A DNA stretch of 64,000 bases from NCBI GenBank assembly GCA_963725905.1, contig CAVSAG010000003.1, forward strand, positions 193,546 through 257,545, read 5' to 3'. Under the pieces are notes generated by a model. The model had not been told where the DNA came from and ran no database searches. It worked only from the letters and a program-made list of their open reading frames with translations. This DNA comes from an uncultured Pseudomonadota bacterium. Its GTDB lineage: Bacteria; Myxococcota_A; Polyangia; Fen-1088. Positions 16,834 to 27,371 of the stretch are shown here, piece by piece. Position numbers and translations under genes: made by a program. Each line of letters begins with the position of its first letter. The stretch's first letter is position 1.

Positions 16834-17023
16834 TTTGCAGGCTCCCGGAAGAGGGCAATCCTACGCGAGTCGCACCCTGCCCACCACCGGTGGCGCGGGA
16901 GATCACACCGTCCCCCGCGTCAGGAGTGCGCGGATTCCCTGAAAACAGGCGACGGAGGTTCCGGGATCGCGCGCTTGACCCGCCCCGCGCATCGCGGTCT
17001 CATGGAACCCGAGGAGGCGCGGC

Positions 17024-17467
17024 ATGAGACTCTCCGGCGTCGTGCTCGGGTTGGTGTTGGTCGTTTCGGTCGTTTCGACCTTGGGACATTCGGCGGCGGC
17101 GGCCGACCGCAACAAGTGCGGCTGCTACAAGGACGGCGGCGGAACCTGCTTCTGCGACAAGAAGGCGAAGTGCGGCTGTCCCGGCGACTGCGAGCCCAAG
17201 GGCTGCGAAGCGCAGCGGGACAAGGAGCTGCAGAAGGAGATCGACGCCGAGACCAAGAAGGCGGCCGCCTCCGGGCACAAGAAACCGTCCGGTGACGACG
17301 AGACCGCCGAGCGAGACGAGGCCCCGGCCCCCAAGGCGTCTGGTCACAAGATGACGGCCGCCCAGTCCAAGCAGCTGGCCAAGCTGCTCGACCTCTACCT
17401 CGGCGATCACCCCGACGCGCGCGGCAAGTCCATCGAGGAAGTGCGGAGCGACGTCGCCGGCCACTGA
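17024..17467 (+). CDS. Secreted small protein with a metallothionein-like Cys cluster
   Basis: Signal peptide, then NKCGCYKDGGGTCFCDKKAKCGCPGDCEPKGCE (9 Cys in 31 residues), a Lys/Glu-rich spacer and a helical tail. Strongly GC3-biased frame. Confidence 0.7.
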   Translation: MRLSGVVLGLVLVVSVVSTLGHSAAAADRNKCGCYKDGGGTCFCDKKAKCGCPGDCEPKGCEAQRDKELQKEIDAETKKAAASGHKKPSGDDETAERDEAPAPKASGHKMTAAQSKQLAKLLDLYLGDHPDARGKSIEEVRSDVAGH

Positions 17468-17539
17468 CCGCCAGGCCGCAAAGAAGCTCGGGCTCCATCG
17501 CCCGAAGTCGACGACAAGCCGGCACTAGGAAGTGGTAAG

Positions 17540-19273
17540 TTGGTGGGCTCGGGGATGGCGCAGCACGGTCGATACAAGATCATCAGACGCGTCGCCGACG
17601 GCGGGATGGCGGAGATCTTTCTCGCCACCCAGCTCGGGCGCGAGGGGTTCGCCAAGCCGGTGATCCTCAAGCGGATCCACACGACGATCTACGCCGACCC
17701 GCAGTTCCGCAACATGTTCATCGACGAGGCTCACATCTCGATGAGCCTCATGCACAGCAACATCGCGCAGGTGCTCGACCTCGGCGTCAGCGCCGGGCGC
17801 TACTTCCTGGTGCTCGAGCTGGTCGACGGCTGGGACCTCGGCCGCGTGCTGCACCGGGCGGCGACCGCCGGCGTGCGTCTCCCGCGCGAGCTCGCCCTCT
17901 ACGTCACGGCCGAGATCTGTCGCGCCCTCGCCTACGCCCACGGCAAGACCGATGGACAGACGCCGCTCGGCATCGTCCACCGCGACGTCAGCCCGCACAA
18001 CATCCTGCTCTCCGAGCAGGGCGAGGTGAAGCTGACCGACTTCGGCATCGCCAAGGCGATGAACAAGCGCGAGCACACCGGCGCCGGCGTCGTGAAGGGC
18101 AAGGTCGCCTTCATGTCGCCCGAGCAGGCGATGGGCAAACCGATCGACGCGCGCTCGGATCTCTTCGCGCTCGGCACCATCCTCTACCTGCTGGTCACGC
18201 GCACGCGCCCGTTCGAGGGGCCGAGCGATCTCGAGACGTTGCTGCGCGTGCAGAAGGGGGACTTTCGCCCGCCCGAGGAGGCGGCGCCCGATCTGCAGCC
18301 CGAGGTGGCGGCCGTCGTCGCCCGCGCCATGCGCAAGGAGCCGGACGAGCGTTACCAGAGCGCCGACGAGATGCTGGCCGACGTCGAGCGGGTGGCGCGG
18401 ACGGCGTTCCGCCCGGTCGGCCAGACCGAGCTCAAGCGCTGGCTGACCGAGCTGGCGGCGCGCGACAGCGCTCCGCCGATCAGCCAGTCGACGGCGCCCG
18501 CGCGCGCCACGGCGACGCGCAGCACGACCGGCACCGGTGAGCTGGAAGAAGAGGACGTCGTCCTCCTCGACACCGACGAGGAGATCATCAACGGCGAGGA
18601 GGCCACCTCGCTGGCGGTGGTCAAGGGCGGCGCCGTCGCGCGGACGCGCATGACCCGCTCGCGGCCCACCCGGCCCGATCTGCCGGTCCCCGAGGACGCC
18701 GAGTCGATGGCCGACCTCTCGGAGCGCTCCGCGATCGCGCTGCCGATCCCCGATGAGGAAGGGGGGAGGCCGGGGCGTCGCCGCGCGCGCCGGGGCGGCG
18801 GCCTGTCGTTCCTGCTCCTGTTCGGGGCGTTGCTGGTGCCGGGCGCGTATTTCGGCGGCAAGTACGTGCGGGTCTGGTTCGGCGGCGGCGACAGCGCGAC
18901 CAGCGCAACCGGTGGCGCCACCGACCACGCGGCCGGGCCGGCCGCCGCCGGAGCGCAGGCAGGCGAGAAGCAGGCGGCGGCGCCCGATGCCGGGGTGGCG
19001 GCGCGCAAGCCCGAGGCCGAGGAGCCGCCCACCCGGCACGCGACCGAGCCGACCGCCGGTCACGAGGCGACCCACGAAGCGTCTCACGAAGCGACTCACG
19101 AACCGGCGGCGCGCCGCCGCGGCGGCGAGCGCATCAAGGACATCGTCGGTCACGACATCGAAGGGTTGAAGATGGCCCCCGATCCCTCCTTGTTGCCATC
19201 GTCGCCGGCGCCGCCACCTGCGCCGAAGCCCGCCGATTCGCCCGCCTCCGCGCCGGCGCCCGAAAACCCGTAG
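17540..19273 (+). CDS. Ser/Thr protein kinase with a TM segment and Pro/Ala-rich tail
   Basis: GGMAEIFLA ... VILKRI ... HRDVSPHNILL ... DFGIAKA ... FMSPEQ. TM segment LSFLLLFGALLVPGAYF. Confidence 0.92.
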   Translation: MVGSGMAQHGRYKIIRRVADGGMAEIFLATQLGREGFAKPVILKRIHTTIYADPQFRNMFIDEAHISMSLMHSNIAQVLDLGVSAGRYFLVLELVDGWDLGRVLHRAATAGVRLPRELALYVTAEICRALAYAHGKTDGQTPLGIVHRDVSPHNILLSEQGEVKLTDFGIAKAMNKREHTGAGVVKGKVAFMSPEQAMGKPIDARSDLFALGTILYLLVTRTRPFEGPSDLETLLRVQKGDFRPPEEAAPDLQPEVAAVVARAMRKEPDERYQSADEMLADVERVARTAFRPVGQTELKRWLTELAARDSAPPISQSTAPARATATRSTTGTGELEEEDVVLLDTDEEIINGEEATSLAVVKGGAVARTRMTRSRPTRPDLPVPEDAESMADLSERSAIALPIPDEEGGRPGRRRARRGGGLSFLLLFGALLVPGAYFGGKYVRVWFGGGDSATSATGGATDHAAGPAAAGAQAGEKQAAAPDAGVAARKPEAEEPPTRHATEPTAGHEATHEASHEATHEPAARRRGGERIKDIVGHDIEGLKMAPDPSLLPSSPAPPPAPKPADSPASAPAPENP

Positions 19274-19382
19274 GGCGACCGCTGACGCACCCGGACGCCG
19301 GGTTTTGTGACGTCTTTCTCTCTTTCGGCCCAGCCGTGTCGGTTTGAGCAGACACGCCGGACTGACGAAAAGGGAGACCAAG

Positions 19383-20447
19383 ATGAAACGACCGACTTTG
19401 GGGTTCGCCAGGATGAGGACGCCGGGAATGCTGGGCGCGGCGCTGCTCGCGCTCGTCGGCTGCGGGAAGCTCGATGGCAGCGAGTTCGAGGGGAGCACGC
19501 CGACCAAGGACACGGTCGCGCTGGTCGTCCCGGCCGCCAGCTCGACGACGGCGACGACCGGCGCGGTGTCCGCCGCCAGCGTCACGGTCAAGCAGAGCGC
19601 GCTGCTCGGCGACACGGCCAAGGACTACGTCCTGACGGCGACGCTCGCCTACGTGGTGAACACCGCGACGGTGGCGGTGCTGGGCCTCGTCAAGGCCGTC
19701 ACCGACTACCCGCCGACCAGCGTCGAGACCGACACCGCCGTCTGGGGTCCCTTCACCGATCCGCTGAGCGCGAACACCTATCGATTGACCGTGGTGAAGC
19801 AGGCGCCGCACGTCTTCGCCTGGAAGCTCGACGGCAAGGGGAAGACCGCCGATGACAGCGCCTTCGTGACTATCCTCTCGGGCGTTCACACGCGCGCCCT
19901 CGACGACATGGGGCACGTCATGCCGGGGTTCGGCAGCGGCAACTTCGTCATCGACTGGGACGCGGCCGACACGCTCCCCCAGCACGACACGAACGTCGGC
20001 CAGATGGCGTTCACCTACTCCCGGACGAGTCCGACGGCGATGTCGACCAACAACGTGACCTTCACCAACATCTTCGACAACTGCGACCCGTCGAACTGCA
20101 ACACGCACGGGCAGATCTTCGACGCGGTCTACGCTTACACGGCCACGCCGGGCTCCGGCGGTGATCTGCAGTACGGCGCGACCGAGAACTTCGTGGCCAC
20201 CACCACGGCGAACGAGACCATCTCGATCCACAGCCGCTGGATGGAGACGGGCGCCGGCCGCACCGACGTCACGGTCACGGGGGGCGACGTCGGCACCGCG
20301 GTCGACACCTCCAACGAGTGCTGGGATTCGAATTTCCTCTCCGTCTACAGCGCGGCGTCGTACGATCCGAACGATCCAGCCGTCGACTGGGGCGCGGAGT
20401 CGAGCTGTGCGTTCCCGACCGCGGCGCTGATTTCGCTGTCGCCGTAA
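19383..20447 (+). CDS. Lipoprotein A of unknown family (paralog of 23439..24383)
   Basis: AAGGGAG RBS. Lipobox in MKRPTLGFARMRTPGMLGAALLALVGC. Shares the WGPF and ECWD blocks with lipoprotein B. Confidence 0.78.
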   Translation: MKRPTLGFARMRTPGMLGAALLALVGCGKLDGSEFEGSTPTKDTVALVVPAASSTTATTGAVSAASVTVKQSALLGDTAKDYVLTATLAYVVNTATVAVLGLVKAVTDYPPTSVETDTAVWGPFTDPLSANTYRLTVVKQAPHVFAWKLDGKGKTADDSAFVTILSGVHTRALDDMGHVMPGFGSGNFVIDWDAADTLPQHDTNVGQMAFTYSRTSPTAMSTNNVTFTNIFDNCDPSNCNTHGQIFDAVYAYTATPGSGGDLQYGATENFVATTTANETISIHSRWMETGAGRTDVTVTGGDVGTAVDTSNECWDSNFLSVYSAASYDPNDPAVDWGAESSCAFPTAALISLSP

Positions 20448-20463
20448 CGAATGAAGTCGAGGG

Positions 20464-20489
20464 CCCGGGGTCGCACGTGCGGCCCCGGG
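20464..20489 (+). promoter_or_regulatory. 13-bp-arm hairpin/palindrome abutting the ECF sigma start codon
   Basis: CCCGGGGTCGCAC/GTGCGGCCCCGGG with one U-G wobble. It lies 16 nt after the lipoprotein A stop and ends 4 nt before ATG 20494. Confidence 0.4.
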
Positions 20490-20493
20490 GACC

Positions 20494-21048
20494 TTGGGCA
20501 GCATGAAACAACCGGTGTTGGAGCTAGTGACTGGCGGAAAGCCGGCCGATTCTCGGGCGGCGCTGCGAGAGCTCTACACCGAGTACGGAGGAACCGTGTA
20601 CGGCCGTTGCCAGTACATCCTGAGGGACGCGACGAAGGCGGAGGACGCGATGCAGGACGTGTTCGCCAAGGCGCTCACCCACTGGAACGATTTTCGGGCC
20701 GAGGCGTCGCCGCTGACCTGGCTGACCCGCATCGCGACCCACCACTGCCTCAACGTGCTGCGGGCCGAGCGCGCCCCCTGGCACCAGCGGTTCGCCCGGG
20801 AAACGCGGGCGCGCGGCGAGGGGCACGGCGGCCCGCAGCTGTTCGAGGATCGCGACGCCGCCCGCAAGCTGCTCGGCGAGCTGGACCTGGAGACACAGCA
20901 GGCGGCGATTCACTACTTCGTCGACGAGATGACGCTGGACGAGGTCGCTGTTGCGCTCGGGCGCTCGGTCCCGACCGTGCGCAAGCGGCTGGCCGCGGTG
21001 GCGGCACTGGCCGGGCGGGAGCTCCCGCCGGACGGAGGGACGACATGA
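20494..21048 (+). CDS. ECF-type RNA polymerase sigma factor
   Basis: Region 2 (AEDAMQDVFAKALTHWNDF ... WLTRIATHHCLNVLR) and region 4 HTH (MTLDEVAVALGRSVPTVRKRL). Confidence 0.92.
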   Translation: MGSMKQPVLELVTGGKPADSRAALRELYTEYGGTVYGRCQYILRDATKAEDAMQDVFAKALTHWNDFRAEASPLTWLTRIATHHCLNVLRAERAPWHQRFARETRARGEGHGGPQLFEDRDAARKLLGELDLETQQAAIHYFVDEMTLDEVAVALGRSVPTVRKRLAAVAALAGRELPPDGGTT

Positions 21049-21857
21049 ACACAGCAGGACACCTCGGCGAGCTGGAGCTGCGCCGCCACCGCGCCGGCGA
21101 GGCGCTGGGGGAGGCGGGGGCGGCGATCGAGGCGCATGCGGGCGCGTGCGCGGAGTGCAAGGCGCGGTTGCGCGCGCTCGACGACGAGCAGCGCCGGTTC
21201 GAGGGCGCGATCTCCTTCGATCGCTTCGCGGCCGGCGTCGAACGGGCCTCGCGCGGCGCGCGCGTGGCGCCGCGGCGGCTCCCGGCGCGCGTCTGGGCGC
21301 TGCCGACGCTGGCGATGGCGGCGGCCGTCGCGGTGCTGGTGACGTTCCACGGCCGCGCGCCCAATGTGGGTCTCGGCGCCGGTGTGCCCGGCGGTCACGT
21401 CCGCCCGGCCGACTGGGACGGCATCAAGGGGGGCGCGGGCATGACGGTGCGGATCGCGGGCGCGGCGGGACAGCGGACGGCGCAGACCGACGCCACCGAG
21501 GCCCTGGCCGCGGGCGAGCGGTTGCGGCTCGGCTACCAGACCGGCGGCCACCGCTATCTTCTTTCGCTGTCGATCGACCAGCGCGGCGAGGTGACGCCGC
21601 TCTACCCGGAGCAGGGGGCGAGCCTCACGGTGCCGGCCGGCGTTCCGAACGCCACGCACTTTCTCCCCGACAGCATCGAGCTGACCGGCGCCGGGATCGA
21701 GCGGATCGTCGTCGTCCTCTCGGACCAGCCGATCGCCATGGAGGTGGCGCGTCGGGCGGCACGCGCGGCGTACGACCGCGCGGGCGGCGATCTCTCCCGC
21801 TTGCCGAAGCTAGAACTGCCGGGCGAGCAATTTATGCGGACCTTCGCCAAGCCGTAA
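21045..21857 (+). CDS. Anti-sigma factor (HxxxCxxC zinc motif, one TM, extracytoplasmic C-terminal domain)
   Basis: ATGA overlap with the sigma stop. HAGACAEC motif. TM segment LPTLAMAAAVAVLVTF. A ~170-aa exported domain (LRLGYQTGGHRYLLSLSIDQRGEVTPLYP ...). Confidence 0.78.
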   Translation: MNTAGHLGELELRRHRAGEALGEAGAAIEAHAGACAECKARLRALDDEQRRFEGAISFDRFAAGVERASRGARVAPRRLPARVWALPTLAMAAAVAVLVTFHGRAPNVGLGAGVPGGHVRPADWDGIKGGAGMTVRIAGAAGQRTAQTDATEALAAGERLRLGYQTGGHRYLLSLSIDQRGEVTPLYPEQGASLTVPAGVPNATHFLPDSIELTGAGIERIVVVLSDQPIAMEVARRAARAAYDRAGGDLSRLPKLELPGEQFMRTFAKP

Positions 21858-21859
21858 TC

Positions 21860-23449
21860 ATGCGCCCGTCGGCGAAAACGGTAGGCCGGCTCGCGGCGCT
21901 CGCCGCGGCACTGGCGGCGACCGGCGCGCGCGCCGACGTGCTGCACCGCTTCGCCGTCATCGCCGGCAACGATTCGGGCGGCGCCGACACGCGTCCGCTG
22001 CTCTACGCCAGCGCCGACGCCAGCAAGGTCTACGACATCCTCACCCGGCTGGGCGGCGTGCGGAGCGAGGACGCCAACCTGATCGTCGACGGTGGCGCCA
22101 GCGACGTGCTGGCGGCGCTGGCCAAGGTCGGCAAGCAGGCCGCCGAGGCGGCCCGCCAAGGCGAGCACACCGCGATCTTCTTCTATTACTCCGGGCACGC
22201 CAAGGACGGCGCGCTCAGGCTCGGCGAATCGCGGCTGCCGATCGACATGCTCAAGGGGCTGGTCGCTGCGGCGCCCGTCGACGTCCGGATCGTCATCCTC
22301 GACTCCTGCCGCTCGGGCGCCATCACGCGCACAAAGGGGGCGCGCAAGGCGCCCGCGTTCGCCATCGAATCGGAGAGCCCGCGCGACGCCAAGGGGATGG
22401 TCATCCTCACCTCCAGCGCGTCGGACGAGGACTCGCAGGAATCGGACGCCATCGGCGGCAGCTACTTCTCGCACCACCTGGCGAGCGGCCTGCTCGGCGG
22501 GGCCGACAGGTCGGGCGACGGCCAGGTGACGCTGTTCGAGGCCTACGCCTACGCCTACGATCGGACGGTCGCCGACACGGCCGACAGCGCGGCCGGAGCG
22601 CAGCACCCGACCTTCAGCTACGACCTGGCCGGCAACGGCGATCTGGTTCTGACCGACGTCGCTTCGCGCCACGAAGGGGTCTACCTTCCACGCCAGGCGC
22701 CTGGCGGGGTCTATTTCCTCGTGGACCGGCAAGGCTTCGTGGCCGCGGAGATCAACAAGGGGGACGGCGTCGATCGTCGGGTGGCGCTGGCGCCCGGGCG
22801 CTACCGGGTCAAGCGCCGGTTGGCCGATCGCCTACGCGTCGGCGAGATCGACGTTCAGCGCGGCGCGCTCGTGACGCTGGAGGAGAACAACCTGCACGAT
22901 GCGCCCTTCTCGGCCGACCCGATCAAGGGCGGGCGCGTCGACATCTCCTCACGCTGGTCGGTCGGCGCCGGCATCGGCTTCCAGTCGGTGTTCGAGGCGC
23001 CCGGCGGCGCGGGTCTGTTCCCCCCCACCGGCATGGTCGACGTCGACTTCGCGCTGCGCGACTTTCTGCGCCGCGACTGGGTGCTGGGCTTCGACCTGGC
23101 GGGCGGCGGCGCCAGCGGCGTCGCGCCGGTTGTCGAGGCGCCGTTTCACTTCACCGAGGTGTCGTTCGCCTCGTCGCTGACGGTCGAGTGGCCGCACCGG
23201 TACCTGACGCCGTTCGTCGGCGGGCGGCTGGCGCTGCTGCTCATGAACCGGACGTTCCAGGACGCGGCGTTCCCCGCCCAGTTCTACGCGACGCTGTCGC
23301 CCGGCATCGTCGGCGGCCTCAGCTATCATTTGTCGCGCGCTACCAGCGTGGTCGCGCGCGGGCGCTTGCACTATCTTCTGTACAACGTCGACGGAAACCA
23401 ATCGCTCGGTTACTGGGAGCTCGCAACCATGGTGGCGTATGATTTCTAG
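21860..23449 (+). CDS. Secreted caspase-like peptidase (family C14) with a C-terminal outer-membrane beta-barrel-like domain
   Basis: Signal peptide ending ATGARA. His context FFYYSGHAKDG and Cys context VILDSCRSGA. The last ~165 aa have an alternating hydrophobic pattern and end VAYDF. Confidence 0.85.
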   Translation: MRPSAKTVGRLAALAAALAATGARADVLHRFAVIAGNDSGGADTRPLLYASADASKVYDILTRLGGVRSEDANLIVDGGASDVLAALAKVGKQAAEAARQGEHTAIFFYYSGHAKDGALRLGESRLPIDMLKGLVAAAPVDVRIVILDSCRSGAITRTKGARKAPAFAIESESPRDAKGMVILTSSASDEDSQESDAIGGSYFSHHLASGLLGGADRSGDGQVTLFEAYAYAYDRTVADTADSAAGAQHPTFSYDLAGNGDLVLTDVASRHEGVYLPRQAPGGVYFLVDRQGFVAAEINKGDGVDRRVALAPGRYRVKRRLADRLRVGEIDVQRGALVTLEENNLHDAPFSADPIKGGRVDISSRWSVGAGIGFQSVFEAPGGAGLFPPTGMVDVDFALRDFLRRDWVLGFDLAGGGASGVAPVVEAPFHFTEVSFASSLTVEWPHRYLTPFVGGRLALLLMNRTFQDAAFPAQFYATLSPGIVGGLSYHLSRATSVVARGRLHYLLYNVDGNQSLGYWELATMVAYDF

Positions 23450-24383
23450 GCGTCTCCGCTTCGTAGGCTTGGCCGTCGCGGCGTCGGCGCTGGCGGCCTG
23501 CGGCAACTACTCGAACGAGGATCTGCTCTTCATGAGCGCGGTCCCCACGTCGACGCAGCTGGCGTTGGTGCTGCCCACCCCCGCGCCCACGGTCGCGCAG
23601 GCCGAGCTGGCCCAGGACACCCACGGCGGCATCGCGACCGTCAACATGCTGCTCGACGACGTGCTGGGGCTCATCGACCTCATCCGCTCGTACGAGCCGA
23701 CCAGTCGCACCTCCGACAGCCGCACCTGGGGGCCGTTCCCCGAGTCGGACAAACCCGGCTGGCAGTGGCGGCTGGTGATCGACCGGGAGGTGAACGGCAC
23801 GACGTTCGACTACCAGCTGGACGTCGCGCCCCAGGTGACACCCGCCCCCTGGGTCGAGTTCCTGACCGGGACCTTCGACGCCGCCGGGGGCGCCAAGCAG
23901 GGGAGCGGCGCGGTGACCGCGAATTTTCTCCAGGTGGCGACCGCCGGATATCCCCTCGACTCCGACTCGGCGCAGTACAAGACGCTCTCGATCACCTACC
24001 AGAACTACGACACGCCGGGCTCTCCGGTCAGCGCGGTGCTCGACCTGAAGCGGGCCGTCCCCGACTCGAACGGAATCACCGAAACGACGTTCAGCTACGA
24101 GATCCTGACCGACGGGTCGGGCGAGATTACCTTCCAGGCCGCCGGCAACGTCGTGGGGGGGACGACGACCGAGACGGTCACCATCCACGCACAGTGGCTG
24201 CCGAACGGCGCCGGCATGGGGACCCTGACCATCACGGCCGGGGCCGACATCGGCGCGACCCAAACCGAGTGCTGGGACGTGAGCTTCGAGGCGACCTACA
24301 ACGACAAGCCCTGGTCGAGCGCCGAGGACGTGAACCCGGGCCAGATGGCCGCCTTCTGCCCGCAACTCCCGGCATTACCCTGA
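23439..24383 (+). CDS. Lipoprotein B of unknown family (paralog of 19383..20447)
   Basis: Lipobox ASALAAC and an 11-nt overlap with the caspase gene. The blocks SRTWGPF and ETVTIHAQWLPNGAG ... TECWDVSF align with lipoprotein A. Confidence 0.78.
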   Translation: MISRRLRFVGLAVAASALAACGNYSNEDLLFMSAVPTSTQLALVLPTPAPTVAQAELAQDTHGGIATVNMLLDDVLGLIDLIRSYEPTSRTSDSRTWGPFPESDKPGWQWRLVIDREVNGTTFDYQLDVAPQVTPAPWVEFLTGTFDAAGGAKQGSGAVTANFLQVATAGYPLDSDSAQYKTLSITYQNYDTPGSPVSAVLDLKRAVPDSNGITETTFSYEILTDGSGEITFQAAGNVVGGTTTETVTIHAQWLPNGAGMGTLTITAGADIGATQTECWDVSFEATYNDKPWSSAEDVNPGQMAAFCPQLPALP

Positions 24384-24468
24384 TAAATCAGCTGCTTACG
24401 GGGGGCTGGATCGAAGGTGCGACGTTGTCGTACCATAGGGCCCAACTCACCGCGGAAGAAGGACGATC

Positions 24469-24798
24469 TTGGCAGAGCACTTTCGGCGAATCGATCCGCG
24501 TTACGAACGCCAGCTGGAGGTCGAGGTCCAGTACGAGGGGAAGAAGGCGACCTCCCAGACCCGTAACATTTCCCTCGGCGGGCTGTACTTGGATTCATTG
24601 ACGGCGCTGCCGATCGGCACGACCGTGCAGCTGAGGTTTGTCCTGCCGACGCAGCCGGAGCCGGTCGAGGTCGCCGGTGACGTCCGCTGGGTCGTGAAGA
24701 AGGGCTCGGGCGACGCCTCGGGCGTCGGGATCCGCTTCCAGGGTCTGCGCGCCAAGGACGTCTGGGCCCTGAACCGGTTTTTCCAGTCGGTCTCCTAG
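24469..24798 (+). CDS. PilZ domain protein (c-di-GMP receptor type)
   Basis: RRIDPR (RxxxR) and NISLGG (D/NxSxxG) motifs. TTG start with a GAAGGA RBS. Confidence 0.85.
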   Translation: MAEHFRRIDPRYERQLEVEVQYEGKKATSQTRNISLGGLYLDSLTALPIGTTVQLRFVLPTQPEPVEVAGDVRWVVKKGSGDASGVGIRFQGLRAKDVWALNRFFQSVS

Positions 24799-24800
24799 AT

Positions 24801-24821
24801 GGGGACCCTGGGAGGGTCCCC
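24801..24821. terminator. GC hairpin between convergent pilZ-domain and helicase genes (no U-tract)
   Basis: GGGGACCC-TGGGA-GGGTCCCC, starting 3 nt after the PilZ stop. Confidence 0.35.
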
Positions 24822-24926
24822 AAACCCCCCCGCGATGGGCTCCGCGCGGCAAAGCCGCGCTACGCCCACGCGATCAGTCGCGCAGCGTTTCGGCGGCTAG
24901 CACAGCGACTCGGCGCCTAGTCTAGT

Positions 24927-27371
24927 CTAGCGCAGCGCTTCCGGTAGCAGTCGCGAGGGGGCGGCGGTGTACGTGACCCAGAGCTGGTGGGCGGCGCGGG
25001 TCATTGCCACGTGCAGGAGGCGGCGCGCGTCGTCGCTGACTGGGTAGGAGGTCTCGTTCACCTCCAGCAGGATCACGATGTCGAACTCGAGCCCCTTGGA
25101 CTGGCGCACGTCCGTCACGTCGATGCCGGCGGTGAAGAGGAAGTCCTGGTCGTCGACCAGACGGAGGTGGGGGACCTCGGCGTTGGCCAGCGCCTCGTAG
25201 TAGAGCCGGGCCTGCTCCGGGTGGCGCGCCAGCAGGGCGACGGAGGCCTCGGGCTCGGCGCGCACCAGCTCCTTGAGCGCGTGCGACAGGAACTCCGCGC
25301 TCTCACCGGCCGAGGCGAAGGCCCACGACTCGACCGGCGCGCCGGCGCGCGGCGCGACCGGGCGGATGTCGCCCATCAGCGGCCCCAGGACGTGCTCGGC
25401 GGAGTCGACGATCTCGCGCGTCGAGCGGTAGCTGACCCGCAGGGGCTCGACCCGCTCGTGCGCGATTTCTAGAAAATCCAGCAACGCGGCCCAGTCAGAG
25501 AAGCCGTGCTCGGGCGCGATCGCCTGCGCGGTGTCGCCGGCCAGTGTGACCGACCGCTGGGCGCTGGTGGTGTCGAGCAGCACCGCCAGCTCGAGCGGCG
25601 AAAAGTCCTGCACCTCGTCGACCATCAGGTGCTCGTAGGCGAGCGTCGTCTTGCTGCCGGCGGCGTCGGGGATGCGACCGCGCTGGCGCTGGTAGATGCG
25701 CAGGAGCAGCGCCTCGTCCTCGGCGTCGAGCGCGTACCGCTCGTCCTCGCCGCCGTCGCTGGCGGCGACGCGCGAGCCCGGGCCGGCGCCACGCAGCCGC
25801 TCGCGTTCCACGCCCCAGCGGTGAAGGTCGTCGAGCTGGCCGGGCGAGAAGACGCCGGGGGCGTGGCGCTCGAACCCGGCGCCGAGCGCCGCGCGATCGG
25901 TCAGCAGGGCGGCCCACTCGGCGGTCACGTCCCGGGTGCGGGCCCGCAGCGCGCGGCCGGCGTTCTCGACGGCGTTGCGCGTGGCGGGATCGAGCGACGC
26001 GGCGTCACGCACCCACTGGGCCAGCGCCGTCACGCGCAGGTCGACGGGGCCGGTCGTGCCGTCCCAGAAGGCGAGCACGGCGGCAGCCTCGGCCTTGTCG
26101 CCCAGCTCGGTGCCGAGGCGCCCGCGGCACCAGTCGGCGAGCGCCGCCTGGCGATCGTCGATGATACGCAGGAACGCGCCGTGCGCCTTGGCCCGCATGA
26201 CGACCGAAGGCGTCTCGTCGGTGATGTCGACGTCGAGCAGCGGGAAGGCGGCGCGGCGGGCCGACTCGGCCCAGGCCGAGAAGGTCTTCACCGGAACGCC
26301 GTCGACGTCCAGCGAGGGGAGCACGCGTGAGACGTAGGCCGCCAGCGCCCGTTGGTAGACGATCACCAGCATCTTCTCGGGGCGGAAGCGGCGCGGGTCG
26401 GCGAAGGCCAGGTAGGCGATGCGGTGCAGGCCGATGGTCGTCTTGCCGCTGCCCGCCGATCCCTGCACGGCGATGAGGCCGGAGGCGGGCTGGGTGATGA
26501 GCTCGAACTGGCGCGGGTCGATGAGCGCGGCGATGGCCGGCAGGTGGCGGTCGGGTCGGCGCGCGCCGTTCTCGTCCAGGCCCAGCTTGCCGCGGGTGGC
26601 GGACGGCGCCGCCGGGGCGGCGGGCAGTGCGGGCGCCGCGGCCGCGCCGGCGGCGGGGATCATCGTGGCGGCCGAGCCGTCGCGCGCGATCTGCAGGCGC
26701 GCCTGGCGGGTGGCGATCTCGCGCCAGGCCCCGGTGCGAATATCGCGCGAGAACGTCCCCTGCGGCGAGGCGACGCGGCGCAGATCGCCGTCGACGATGG
26801 CCACCGTGCGGCGCGCCAGCACCTCCCCCTCGACGAGCCGATCGCCAAGCCGCTCCTCGTAGGCGTCTCCCTCTTCGTAGCGGTAGAAGAGGCGCGACAC
26901 CGGGGCGTTGCGCCAGTCGACGATCTGCACGCCGCCCCCTGGCTCGACGAAGCTGCGCGCCCCGATGAGGACGTCGCGCCTCTTCCCGCTCTCCTCGAGG
27001 CGCAGATGGCCGAAGTACGGCGACTTGCGGTCGACGGGCGGCGTGTCTCCCTTGCCGCGCTGGCGCGACAGCGCCTCGATCCGGTGCATCTGCTCGAGGA
27101 TCGACCCCTGGTCCTCGGGTTTCGCCTCGGCCAGCGCGTCGCGCAGCTCGATGAGCGCGCTGGCGTCGTCGACCTGGATGCGCGTCTTGCGCGGCCCGCC
27201 CGCCTCGAGCTTGCGCAGGACGATGGAGAGGAGCTGCTTCTCCTCGCGGACGATCTCCGGCGCCGCGGCATCGTCATCGACGTTCCGGGATGTCTCCGGC
27301 GTCGTCGTTTGGGGCTCCGGGTCCTGCACGAGGTCGGCCAGCATAGTGGCGCCGCGCGTTTGTGTCACCAC
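24927..27371 (-). CDS. helD: UvrD/Rep superfamily-1 helicase of the HelD / helicase IV type
   Basis: Walker A GSAGSGKTT; DEVQDF; TLAGDTAQAI; VSYRSTREIV; SKGLEFDIVILL; VAMTRA. The N-terminal YFGHLRLEE ... VDWRNAPVSRLFY resembles the HelD N-domain. Confidence 0.88.
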   Translation of the reverse strand: MVTQTRGATMLADLVQDPEPQTTTPETSRNVDDDAAAPEIVREEKQLLSIVLRKLEAGGPRKTRIQVDDASALIELRDALAEAKPEDQGSILEQMHRIEALSRQRGKGDTPPVDRKSPYFGHLRLEESGKRRDVLIGARSFVEPGGGVQIVDWRNAPVSRLFYRYEEGDAYEERLGDRLVEGEVLARRTVAIVDGDLRRVASPQGTFSRDIRTGAWREIATRQARLQIARDGSAATMIPAAGAAAAPALPAAPAAPSATRGKLGLDENGARRPDRHLPAIAALIDPRQFELITQPASGLIAVQGSAGSGKTTIGLHRIAYLAFADPRRFRPEKMLVIVYQRALAAYVSRVLPSLDVDGVPVKTFSAWAESARRAAFPLLDVDITDETPSVVMRAKAHGAFLRIIDDRQAALADWCRGRLGTELGDKAEAAAVLAFWDGTTGPVDLRVTALAQWVRDAASLDPATRNAVENAGRALRARTRDVTAEWAALLTDRAALGAGFERHAPGVFSPGQLDDLHRWGVERERLRGAGPGSRVAASDGGEDERYALDAEDEALLLRIYQRQRGRIPDAAGSKTTLAYEHLMVDEVQDFSPLELAVLLDTTSAQRSVTLAGDTAQAIAPEHGFSDWAALLDFLEIAHERVEPLRVSYRSTREIVDSAEHVLGPLMGDIRPVAPRAGAPVESWAFASAGESAEFLSHALKELVRAEPEASVALLARHPEQARLYYEALANAEVPHLRLVDDQDFLFTAGIDVTDVRQSKGLEFDIVILLEVNETSYPVSDDARRLLHVAMTRAAHQLWVTYTAAPSRLLPEALR

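Follow-up and report, generated by a model that had tools for sequence, protein, structure and literature searches.

We analysed a 64,000-nucleotide (nt) stretch of DNA, here called the window, from an uncultured bacterium of the Polyangia (GTDB lineage Myxococcota_A; Polyangia; Fen-1088; assembly GCA_963725905.1, contig CAVSAG010000003.1, positions 193,546 to 257,545), and describe a five-gene cassette on its forward strand that joins a sigma factor of the extracytoplasmic function (ECF) type to a caspase homologue. The genes encode, in this order, a lipoprotein (A), the sigma factor, a zinc-finger anti-sigma factor with a single membrane pass, a caspase homologue of the Peptidase_C14 family with a predicted outer membrane anchor, and a second lipoprotein (B). 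By prediction the products span the layers of the cell, with the sigma factor in the cytoplasm, the anti-sigma factor in the inner membrane, the caspase in the periplasm and at the outer membrane, and A and B probably at the outer membrane. We are confident of this architecture and topology. That the cassette works as a trans-envelope signalling module, in which the caspase would act on the anti-sigma factor, is our preferred reading and a tentative one.

A cassette conserved across two Myxococcota classes

All five genes lie on the + strand and are tightly coupled, and an open reading frame (ORF) listing with translations bore out the positions given for them in an earlier reading, made from the letters alone (hereafter the sequence-only reading). 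The gene of lipoprotein A (19383-20447, 354 amino acids (aa)) comes first, its ATG preceded by a GGGAG ribosome-binding site, and is followed by the ECF sigma factor gene (20503-21048, 181 aa). For the latter, the sequence-only reading had proposed a start at 20494, a TTG that would give 184 aa. Its stop at 21048 stands, but the ATG at 20503 is the likelier start, since orthologue alignments begin there. The sigma stop and the start of the anti-sigma gene (21045-21857, 270 aa) overlap as ATGA, the caspase gene (21860-23449, 529 aa) starts 2 nt past the anti-sigma stop codon, and caspase and lipoprotein B genes (the latter at 23439-24383, 314 aa) share an overlap of 11 nt. The cassette region has a G+C content of about 70%, without a compositional break relative to its surroundings.

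To survey relatives we scanned GTDB, one genome per species, with a caspase alignment as query. Relatives were present in 241 stretches, and the best 80 of these, which were examined, extend from Polyangia metagenome-assembled genomes (MAGs; 95% identity) down to cultivated Myxococcia (53-60%). As the cultivated genera among them (Corallococcus, Myxococcus, Archangium, Citreicoccus and Hyalangium) are Myxococcia, a class distinct from Polyangia, the cassette spans two classes of Myxococcota. A Stigmatella-type draft genome record (AAMD01000087) also contains it. When the five products and the flanking genes were compared by tblastn with every locus, every related locus whose flanks were long enough showed the order A, ECF sigma, anti-sigma, caspase, B. 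Homologues of B were all unnamed proteins of uncultured Polyangia and metagenomes, the best 120 caspase homologues were 66-91% identical, and the contigs checked for either protein showed the same five genes. Orthologues of A (35-94% identical) hold the first place wherever a locus extends far enough upstream, and those of the sigma factor are 56-94% identical. The gene junctions recur as well: ECF sigma and anti-sigma genes meet at -4 nt in 15 of 21 loci, and caspase and B genes at -11 or -4 nt in 16 of 23. Since both the five-gene order and the overlaps recur across loci, the arrangement is far beyond chance.

The members of the cassette are not equally conserved. In Myxococcia-type loci, the sigma factor is 59-67% identical to its window counterpart, the caspase 53-60%, the anti-sigma factor 37-52%, A 35-45% and B 25-38%. 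Conservation of the caspase thus comes close to that of the sigma factor; it exceeds that of the anti-sigma factor and A and, by a wide margin, that of B.

Upstream of the cassette, the window encodes a 147-aa protein without family match together with a Ser/Thr kinase (17024-19273, + strand; the kinase itself at 17540-19273), and downstream a PilZ protein (24469-24798, + strand) and a UvrD-like helicase (24927-27371, - strand). The kinase, PilZ and UvrD-like flanks are restricted to the Polyangia clade, where they and the gene of the 147-aa protein are syntenic throughout; the one exception is a locus (L081) in which a PilZ and a UvrD-like gene occur some 5 kb farther downstream of the cassette. 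Because the flanks change while the order of the cassette holds, the five genes form a conserved unit. The sequence-only reading had made its interpretation depend on synteny in related genomes, and the five genes are indeed found together in Polyangia MAGs and also in cultivated Myxococcia, where the flanks are lost.

Some loci deviate in detail. Cassette genes are broken in two MAGs (L005/L024, about 9574-10523 in L005 coordinates, and L080, 6044-8511): in one, B is split into ORFs of 124 aa and 205 aa; in the other, the caspase, anti-sigma and UvrD-like genes are split. These breaks may be frameshifts from long-read assembly or real pseudogenes. In a Myxococcaceae MAG (L068, 6018-6860), about 840 nt separate the anti-sigma and caspase genes (0-85 nt in other loci), which may reflect an insertion or an extra small gene.

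Predicted topology of the cassette products

The product of 20503-21048 is an ECF (group IV) sigma-70 factor, as documented by matches to Sigma70_r2 (6e-15), Sigma70_r4_2 (1.7e-6) and TIGR02937 (8e-20, 71 bits versus a cut-off of 42.9). Its partner, the product of 21045-21857, is by its sequence motifs a member of the zinc-binding anti-sigma factor (ZAS) class, with predicted zinc binding and sigma inhibition. The putative cytoplasmic domain comprises an H31-x3-C35-x2-C38 motif (nt 21135-21158, + strand), of which the orthologue alignment keeps C35 and C38 invariant and H31 nearly so. The sole hydrophobic helix, W84-F101 (nt 21294-21347, + strand), is the predicted transmembrane segment, and the C-terminal 145 residues or so (about nt 21426-21854, + strand) form a DUF4384-like domain that would lie in the periplasm. 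Among 22 anti-sigma orthologues drawn from the whole range of loci, zf-HC2 matched 11 (best 9.5e-7) and DUF4384 (PF14326) matched 20 at E <= 0.05 (best 4.6e-6). A family profile searched against PDB sequences gave weak best matches (E 0.03-0.6), all to the anti-sigma domains of ChrR, DdvA and RsiW. In the alignment, a variable periplasmic linker follows the transmembrane helix and leads to a nearly invariant N-R-x-K-G motif directly before DUF4384; the K-G of this motif is K128-G129 in the window protein.

Database names of these anti-sigma orthologues differ. NCBI calls those of cultivated strains 'DUF4384 domain-containing' or 'zf-HC2 domain-containing', and JGI likewise names some others DUF4384 proteins. 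Eight orthologues from Polyangia MAGs (P0403, P0404, P0435, P0437, P0452, P0476, P0495 and P0504) are labelled 'ACP synthase' by NCBI, which looks like a propagated misannotation, since their zf-HC2/DUF4384 make-up disagrees with that label.

The caspase homologue begins with a predicted signal peptide (aa 1-26) that ends in ARA, before D. Pfam Peptidase_C14 matched it with 39.8 bits (cut-off 21.4, E 5e-10) and also matched all 20 aligned orthologues. Within the caspase fold (about aa 28-270, nt 21941-22669, + strand), H113 (in YSGHA) and C150 (in DSCRSG) are invariant in the 20-sequence alignment. Counts of the dyad, of the S1-type residues and of the promoter-like motif described below were taken over 87 loci, and D53, S111, H113, D148 and C150 were present in 87 of 87. 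The His/Cys dyad of the C14 type, on which the sequence-only reading had built, is thus conserved without exception. The core as a whole is extremely conserved, long surface stretches included. Metacaspases and orthocaspases cut after Arg or Lys, caspases after Asp. D53 and D148, the latter two residues before the catalytic Cys, resemble the acidic S1 residues of metacaspases and by this analogy suggest a preference for Arg or Lys at P1.

An AlphaFold2 (AF2) model of the caspase homologue (mean predicted local distance difference test (pLDDT) 63, with the p20 core and barrel mostly at 70-90) resolved, after the signal peptide, an alpha/beta caspase domain, a beta-sandwich (aa 273-348, nt 22676-22903, + strand) and seven to eight long antiparallel strands (aa 365-529, nt 22952-23446, + strand) that are predicted to form an eight-stranded barrel. 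The model is poor at residues 151-270, and the last barrel strand is of low confidence. Foldseek aligned the N-terminal part with metacaspase 7qp1, MALT1 and caspases 2, 6 and 7 (probability 1.00), and the C-terminal part with the barrels of Ail, NspA, OmpX and OmpA (probability 1.00). The crystal-structure matches of the barrel had target-normalised template modelling (TM) scores of 0.57-0.72, with E values from 7.5e-5 to 4e-4 for Ail (3qrc), NspA (1p4t) and the OmpA barrel (1bxw), and of 5e-3 for OmpX (1qj9). Where a barrel's beta-signal would close with an aromatic or hydrophobic residue, the protein ends in YDF, YDL, YEL, YEF, YRL or YEM in 61 of 86 loci and in Y-x-P in 20. The C-terminal beta-barrel of the sequence-only reading is therefore supported by model and structure search alike. 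An autotransporter reading was rejected: autotransporters have 12 strands and a linker helix, and the model shows eight strands and no such helix. Since both chain ends of eight-stranded barrels of the Ail/OmpX kind face the periplasm, we infer from the model that the catalytic domain lies in the periplasm on an outer membrane tether.

Lipoproteins A and B carry the lipoboxes LVGC and LAAC, respectively, both conserved in orthologues. Because residue +2 is Gly rather than Lys in both proteins, predicted lipidation and sorting would probably place them at the outer membrane. The sequence-only reading had called A and B paralogues; BLASTP agrees (26% identity over 304 columns, E = 8e-14), and the two motifs quoted in that reading align. 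The alignment of B shows an invariant C278 and a nearly invariant C307; these suggest a disulfide, which would fit an extracytoplasmic location. The AF2 model of B (pLDDT 78), in which about 14 beta strands follow an N-terminal helix, matched no PDB fold at E <= 1e-3; its top hits (PL24 lyase, porins, APCDD1 and TbpB) had TM scores of only about 0.1-0.25 and give no fold assignment. In addition, A and B had no match in Pfam or NCBIfam, and a profile of both found nothing among PDB sequences at E <= 5. The sequence-only reading had likewise failed to recognise the family.

A family profile built from the B homologues and A was searched against 1.84 billion cluster representatives and retrieved 1380 of them at E <= 1e-3 (948 at E <= 1e-10). 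Nearly all have 300-345 aa, and a lipobox was present in 134 of the 149 that were checked. Tandem-duplicated members, with two to three matched stretches each, were observed at two places outside the cassette (L088, 2158-4062, 634 aa; L210, 4678-6552, 624 aa). The copy in L210 adjoins a 1031-aa CarboxypepD_reg protein, possibly a large outer membrane protein, and that in L088 lies about 0.8 kb downstream of a B-like gene, with a VF530-domain gene between them. A solitary copy with unrelated neighbours was also seen.

Taken together, an envelope location of the caspase, as proposed in the sequence-only reading, fits its signal peptide and eight-stranded barrel as well as the lipoboxes of A and B. 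The wider claim that every product except the sigma factor carries an export signal holds for these three proteins but not for the anti-sigma factor, which has a membrane anchor, a cytoplasmic N-terminus and no cleaved signal.

A promoter-like motif and a candidate signalling route

Alignment of the 160 nt upstream of A across loci revealed a bipartite promoter-like motif. In the window it reads TTTCTCTCTTTC-N7-CCGTGTC (19315-19340, + strand) and ends 42 nt 5' of the ATG of A; the family consensus is TTTCT(G/C)(T/C)TTT, about 11 variable nt and C-N-GTGTC(C/G)AT. The two blocks, held at fixed spacing by a spacer of variable sequence, look like a -35/-10 pair, and the -10 block has the cGT common to M. 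xanthus ECF promoters. Across loci the motif lies 14-75 nt (mostly 45-70) before the script-assigned start codons of A. In 67 of 87 loci it directly precedes A, on the + strand (several others lack upstream DNA), and a second match elsewhere is present only in L031 and L047. The pattern matches once in the 64-kb window, against 0.02 matches expected.

Metagenomes were scanned with the Myxococcaceae form of the motif as an exact consensus, and 120 matches were listed, for the most part chance hits in contigs of low GC. A GC content >0.58 was seen in only 12 of the 120: seven of them lie upstream of A orthologues, two are cut at contig ends, and the three others (GC 0.61-0.64, at exonuclease-like, uvrC and cyclodeaminase-like genes) look like chance matches or terminator tails and were set aside. 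At GC >= 0.67 there were eight stretches, seven with an A orthologue directly downstream of the motif and an eighth that ends at it. The scan weakly fits an operon-specific promoter.

Since A and ECF sigma genes abut or overlap in several lineages, the two are expected to be co-transcribed, and since one conserved motif precedes A, the five genes probably constitute one operon. We think it likely that this operon is also autoregulated. A sigma-70 promoter scan of the region found nothing, and a terminator scan only weak intragenic matches. In 18 loci of the Polyangia clade, the 55-nt spacer between A and the sigma gene contains a GC-rich hairpin (20463-20490 in the window, + strand), for which RNAalifold gave a consensus stem of 12 bp and -25 kcal/mol. 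Three of its pairs show compensatory changes; no T-run follows it, and it is absent where A and ECF sigma genes abut. A search of Rfam with 17000-25500, which includes the 5' untranslated region and the hairpin, found no match at E <= 1. By attenuation or stabilisation of the transcript, the hairpin might determine how much A is made relative to the downstream products. CarD-CarG of M. xanthus, which several ECF sigma factors require, binds AT-rich tracts by its AT-hooks (PMC6061681); that the T-rich tract at 19315-19326 (+ strand), in a genome of 70% G+C, is a site of this type is pure speculation.

From these data we propose the following route. At rest, the anti-sigma factor would keep the sigma factor at the inner membrane, with its periplasmic DUF4384 domain touching the caspase on its outer membrane tether. 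When the outer membrane or periplasm is disturbed, the barrel, A and B, or all of them would sense this, and the caspase would be activated or released. Because D53 and D148 are metacaspase-like acidic S1 residues, we predict cleavage after Lys or Arg, and the caspase would cut the anti-sigma factor on its periplasmic side, K128-G129 just before DUF4384 being the candidate site. RseP-type intramembrane cleavage and cytoplasmic proteolysis would then free the sigma factor, which would drive the promoter upstream of A and raise expression of the whole cassette, the protease and both lipoproteins included.

The central step, in which the caspase acts on the anti-sigma factor, probably as its site-1 protease, is one we consider quite possible and somewhat short of probable. 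An interaction between the two is suggested by their strict adjacency and shared compartment, and by DUF4384-caspase fusions elsewhere: DUF4384 is reported to be often fused to protease domains and to orthocaspases. In addition, some Csx30 proteins carry a C-terminal DUF4384, and Csx30, which controls an ECF sigma factor, is the substrate of the caspase-fold protease Csx29 (bioRxiv 10.1101/2022.08.17.504292, PMC10028731). A search with the anti-sigma periplasmic domain found no caspase-DUF4384 fusion among the 120 matches listed, all of which were orthologous anti-sigma factors.

Several points weigh against this proposal. The decisive step is deduced from architecture, and co-transcription fits equally well with the caspase, A and B being a mere output of the sigma factor. 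The window anti-sigma factor itself matches DUF4384 with 17.2 bits (E = 0.005), below the Pfam cut-off of 27. The assignment of the S1 pocket relies on sequence motifs and knowledge of metacaspases, the model being poor at residues 151-270. The -35 block of the motif is T-rich and lacks the AAC of characterised M. xanthus ECF promoters, because of which we assign the motif to this sigma factor only provisionally. Finally, lipoproteins of the A/B family also occur outside the cassette; A and B therefore belong to a larger group of myxobacterial lipoproteins and are not partners of the caspase alone.

In the main rival, an output model, the sigma and anti-sigma factors would sense an envelope signal alone, via DUF4384, with the caspase, A and B as their regulon; the tethered protease would degrade or process periplasmic or outer membrane proteins in quality control, remodelling or surface maturation, and A and B would be its substrates, adaptors or inhibitors. 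Such a role agrees with five translationally coupled genes under one promoter-like motif, and with A/B-type lipoproteins that also adjoin other outer membrane proteins. Neither the rest of the window nor the interpretable high-GC metagenome matches contained another copy of the motif, which fits a regulon limited to the operon, although this regulon test, an exact-consensus scan of metagenomes, is weak. An output role leaves unexplained, however, why the type of sensor domain seen in the anti-sigma factor recurs fused to caspases and proteases, and why anti-sigma and caspase genes adjoin and overlap throughout the phylum. We rate it as possible, if doubtful. It is also what the sequence-only reading had proposed, with the caspase under a dedicated sigma factor. 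The shared motif upstream of A supports the co-expression that this implies, but the direction of control may be reversed or two-way, and cleavage of the anti-sigma factor and an output role of the caspase can both hold.

Three further explanations carry less weight. Eukaryotic metacaspases are linked to cell death and myxobacteria undergo developmental lysis, so the caspase might be an executioner whose regulated envelope proteolysis kills or lyses a share of the cells in fruiting-body development. A 2012 survey suggested that metacaspase-sigma operons might aid such lysis (PMC3501461), and the predicted envelope location of the protease and its strictly conserved dyad would suit this task. 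The cassette, though, is also conserved in many uncultured Polyangia MAGs of unclear developmental biology, a positive-feedback ECF architecture is typical of stress responses, and Pfam and NCBIfam reveal nothing lysin- or pore-former-like in the cassette; we find this explanation improbable. The strict conservation of the dyad and S1-type residues in all 87 loci, the opposite of a pseudo-enzyme pattern, speaks against a structural outer membrane complex of the barrel and two lipoproteins, with the caspase fold as a non-catalytic scaffold whose level is adjusted by the sigma and anti-sigma factors. Pseudo-orthocaspases are common in bacteria, and the extreme conservation of the core, surface stretches included, might be expected of a scaffold, but we hold this to be very improbable. 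Scarcely any credence is due to an anti-phage or inter-bacterial conflict system with a caspase-like protease, as in CHAT/craspase systems or EACC1-associated caspases. The best NCBIfam match of the caspase domain is indeed of the 'EACC1-associated type' (56.5 bits, well under the cut-off of 140), and DdvS/DdvA of M. xanthus controls a defence island. Against this, none of the five proteins matched PADLOC-DB v2 models at E <= 0.01, and every component except the sigma factor is extracytoplasmic. The GC content of the cassette equals that of its surroundings, and the cassette has the traits of a core locus passed on vertically, with identity falling with taxonomy, flanks conserved within clades and no mobile-element signature.

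To return to the preferred signalling route, its boldest form joins several steps: the metacaspase-type protease, tethered to the inner face of the outer membrane, would be the dedicated site-1 protease of a DUF4384-type anti-sigma factor, DUF4384 a general docking and substrate domain for caspases, and A and B outer membrane sensors that gate the protease. This would amount to a new route by which the status of the outer membrane reaches transcription, present throughout the Myxococcota and perhaps more than once in a genome, given its several paralogous caspase-ECF cassettes. DUF4384 as a caspase-docking domain would explain its fusions to orthocaspases and proteases and its presence in Csx30. 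As a whole, we regard this combination as rather unlikely.

Kinase-linked ECF sigma factors are known, and the kinase upstream of the cassette could therefore be an extra, clade-specific input. The window encodes a second Ser/Thr kinase (617-1669, - strand) that is 35% identical to it (tblastn E = 2e-53).

Significance and comparison with known systems

To our knowledge, almost none of the abundant bacterial caspase homologues has an established substrate or physiological role, and most pairs of ECF sigma and anti-sigma factors have no known activating protease. The cassette offers a compact, phylum-wide test case with a candidate protease, substrate, cleavage site and promoter read-out and two lipoproteins of unknown kind, and it occurs in cultivable genera, among them Myxococcus, to which the genetic model M. 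xanthus belongs. Should the caspase cut the anti-sigma factor, it would represent a new class of site-1 protease for regulated intramembrane proteolysis (RIP), with a caspase fold and an outer membrane anchor, and DUF4384 would gain a function. Such cleavage would also tie the cassette to the proposed self-cleavage of DdvA and to the control of RpoE by craspase and Csx30, making ECF control by caspase folds a recurring theme. If the caspase is an output instead, the cassette would define an envelope protease system under inducible control, in bacteria of social and predatory habit whose envelope remodelling and developmental lysis are poorly understood.

An association of this kind has been noted before. 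According to the 2012 survey (Asplund-Samuelsson et al., PMC3501461), four of the five metacaspases of M. xanthus DK1622 lie in operons with sigma-70-family factors, similar operons occur in Anaeromyxobacter, Haliangium, Sorangium, Ralstonia and Fibrobacter, and a role in developmental autolysis was speculated. Like the cassette, these operons combine a Peptidase_C14 gene with a sigma-70-family factor in myxobacteria, and the cassette very probably belongs to this set. In the text of the survey that we could see, only the sigma factor is named as a common element, and an anti-sigma factor with DUF4384, a barrel, A and B or a promoter motif do not appear. The sequence-only reading knew of no characterised system with this architecture; as to the sigma-metacaspase association it was anticipated by the survey, and as to characterisation it holds in so far as our literature search found no functional study of such operons. 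The main text of the ECF reclassification paper mentions neither caspases nor C14; for members of ECF54, control by neighbouring proteases, some with CHAT domains, has been predicted.

A Myxococcales MAG (L086, 703-4590, - strand) contains a second, divergent cassette back-to-back with the main one. Its caspase paralogue (676 aa) has the same motifs (YYSGHA, LDACQSG and SHHL), a beta-sandwich and a different C-terminal region, and some 1.3 kb downstream the same strand encodes an ECF sigma factor (198 aa). A 400-aa ORF between the two looks spurious (an Arg/Gly-rich frame) and was discarded. The second cassette fits the several sigma-metacaspase operons per myxobacterial genome counted in the survey.

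A characterised system of the same phylum is DdvS/DdvA of M. xanthus. DdvA, too, has a zinc-finger anti-sigma domain, a single transmembrane helix and a periplasmic caspase-fold His/Cys module (PMC11506125, PMC6061681), and its TPR-CHAT part is proposed to cleave itself before RseP acts and thereby to start proteolysis of the anti-sigma factor (PMC11506125). Its anti-sigma domain was among the best, albeit weak, PDB sequence matches of our anti-sigma family (E = 0.13). In DdvA, however, the protease-like module is CHAT rather than C14, is fused to the anti-sigma factor and is dimeric and about 900 residues long, with self-cleavage proposed in trans. In the cassette, by contrast, the C14 protease is a separate polypeptide, at the outer membrane by prediction, the anti-sigma factor is a 270-aa DUF4384 protein without TPR or CHAT match, and two lipoproteins are added. 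DdvS controls CBASS and CRISPR genes, none of which lie in or beside the cassette.

A second parallel is the type III-E craspase, in which Csx29 (TPR-CHAT) cleaves Csx30, which together with Csx31 controls RpoE (bioRxiv 10.1101/2022.08.17.504292, PMC10028731). Here, too, a caspase-fold protease modulates an ECF sigma factor by cutting an anti-sigma-like protein, and some Csx30 proteins share the DUF4384 domain type with our anti-sigma factor. Craspase is cytoplasmic, RNA-guided, CRISPR-associated and of the CHAT type, whereas the cassette is extracytoplasmic (by prediction, its sigma factor aside), of the C14 type and without cas genes: its neighbours encode the Ser/Thr kinase, PilZ and UvrD-like proteins, with no CRISPR/Cas7-11 association.

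The layout of the cassette further recalls cell-surface signalling, as known from FecA-FecR-FecI and from the SusC-like/anti-sigma/ECF systems of Bacteroidota. These share an outer membrane barrel with an N-terminal periplasmic domain, an inner membrane anti-sigma factor, an ECF sigma factor and sometimes partner lipoproteins. The barrel of the cassette has eight predicted strands (OmpX/Ail-like) and no plug, against 22 in a TonB-dependent transducer, and its periplasmic domain has a protease fold in place of the signalling domain of FecIRA. In agreement with this, the cassette proteins had no Pfam match to TonB_dep_Rec, Plug, STN or FecR.

That is, the theme of an ECF sigma/anti-sigma pair with a caspase-fold protease is already noted or characterised in related forms. 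What we did not find described are the separate C14 protease with a predicted outer membrane anchor, the DUF4384 anti-sigma partner, the A and B proteins of no recognisable fold, and a conserved promoter-like motif. Mechanistically, the nearest frame is RIP of anti-sigma factors, as in sigmaE-RseA with DegS and RseP of E. coli or sigmaW-RsiW with PrsW of B. subtilis. The cassette shares with these systems a single-pass anti-sigma factor, a cytoplasmic sigma-binding domain, the expectation of a periplasmic site-1 cut before the site-2 cut, and a sigma factor that, probably in its own case, autoregulates its operon. It differs in that the site-1 proteases of those systems (DegS, PrsW, Prc, signal peptidase) are serine or metalloproteases, reside in the inner membrane or are soluble, and are mostly encoded outside the operon. 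By this comparison, a site-1 protease with a caspase fold and a tether to the outer membrane would be new.

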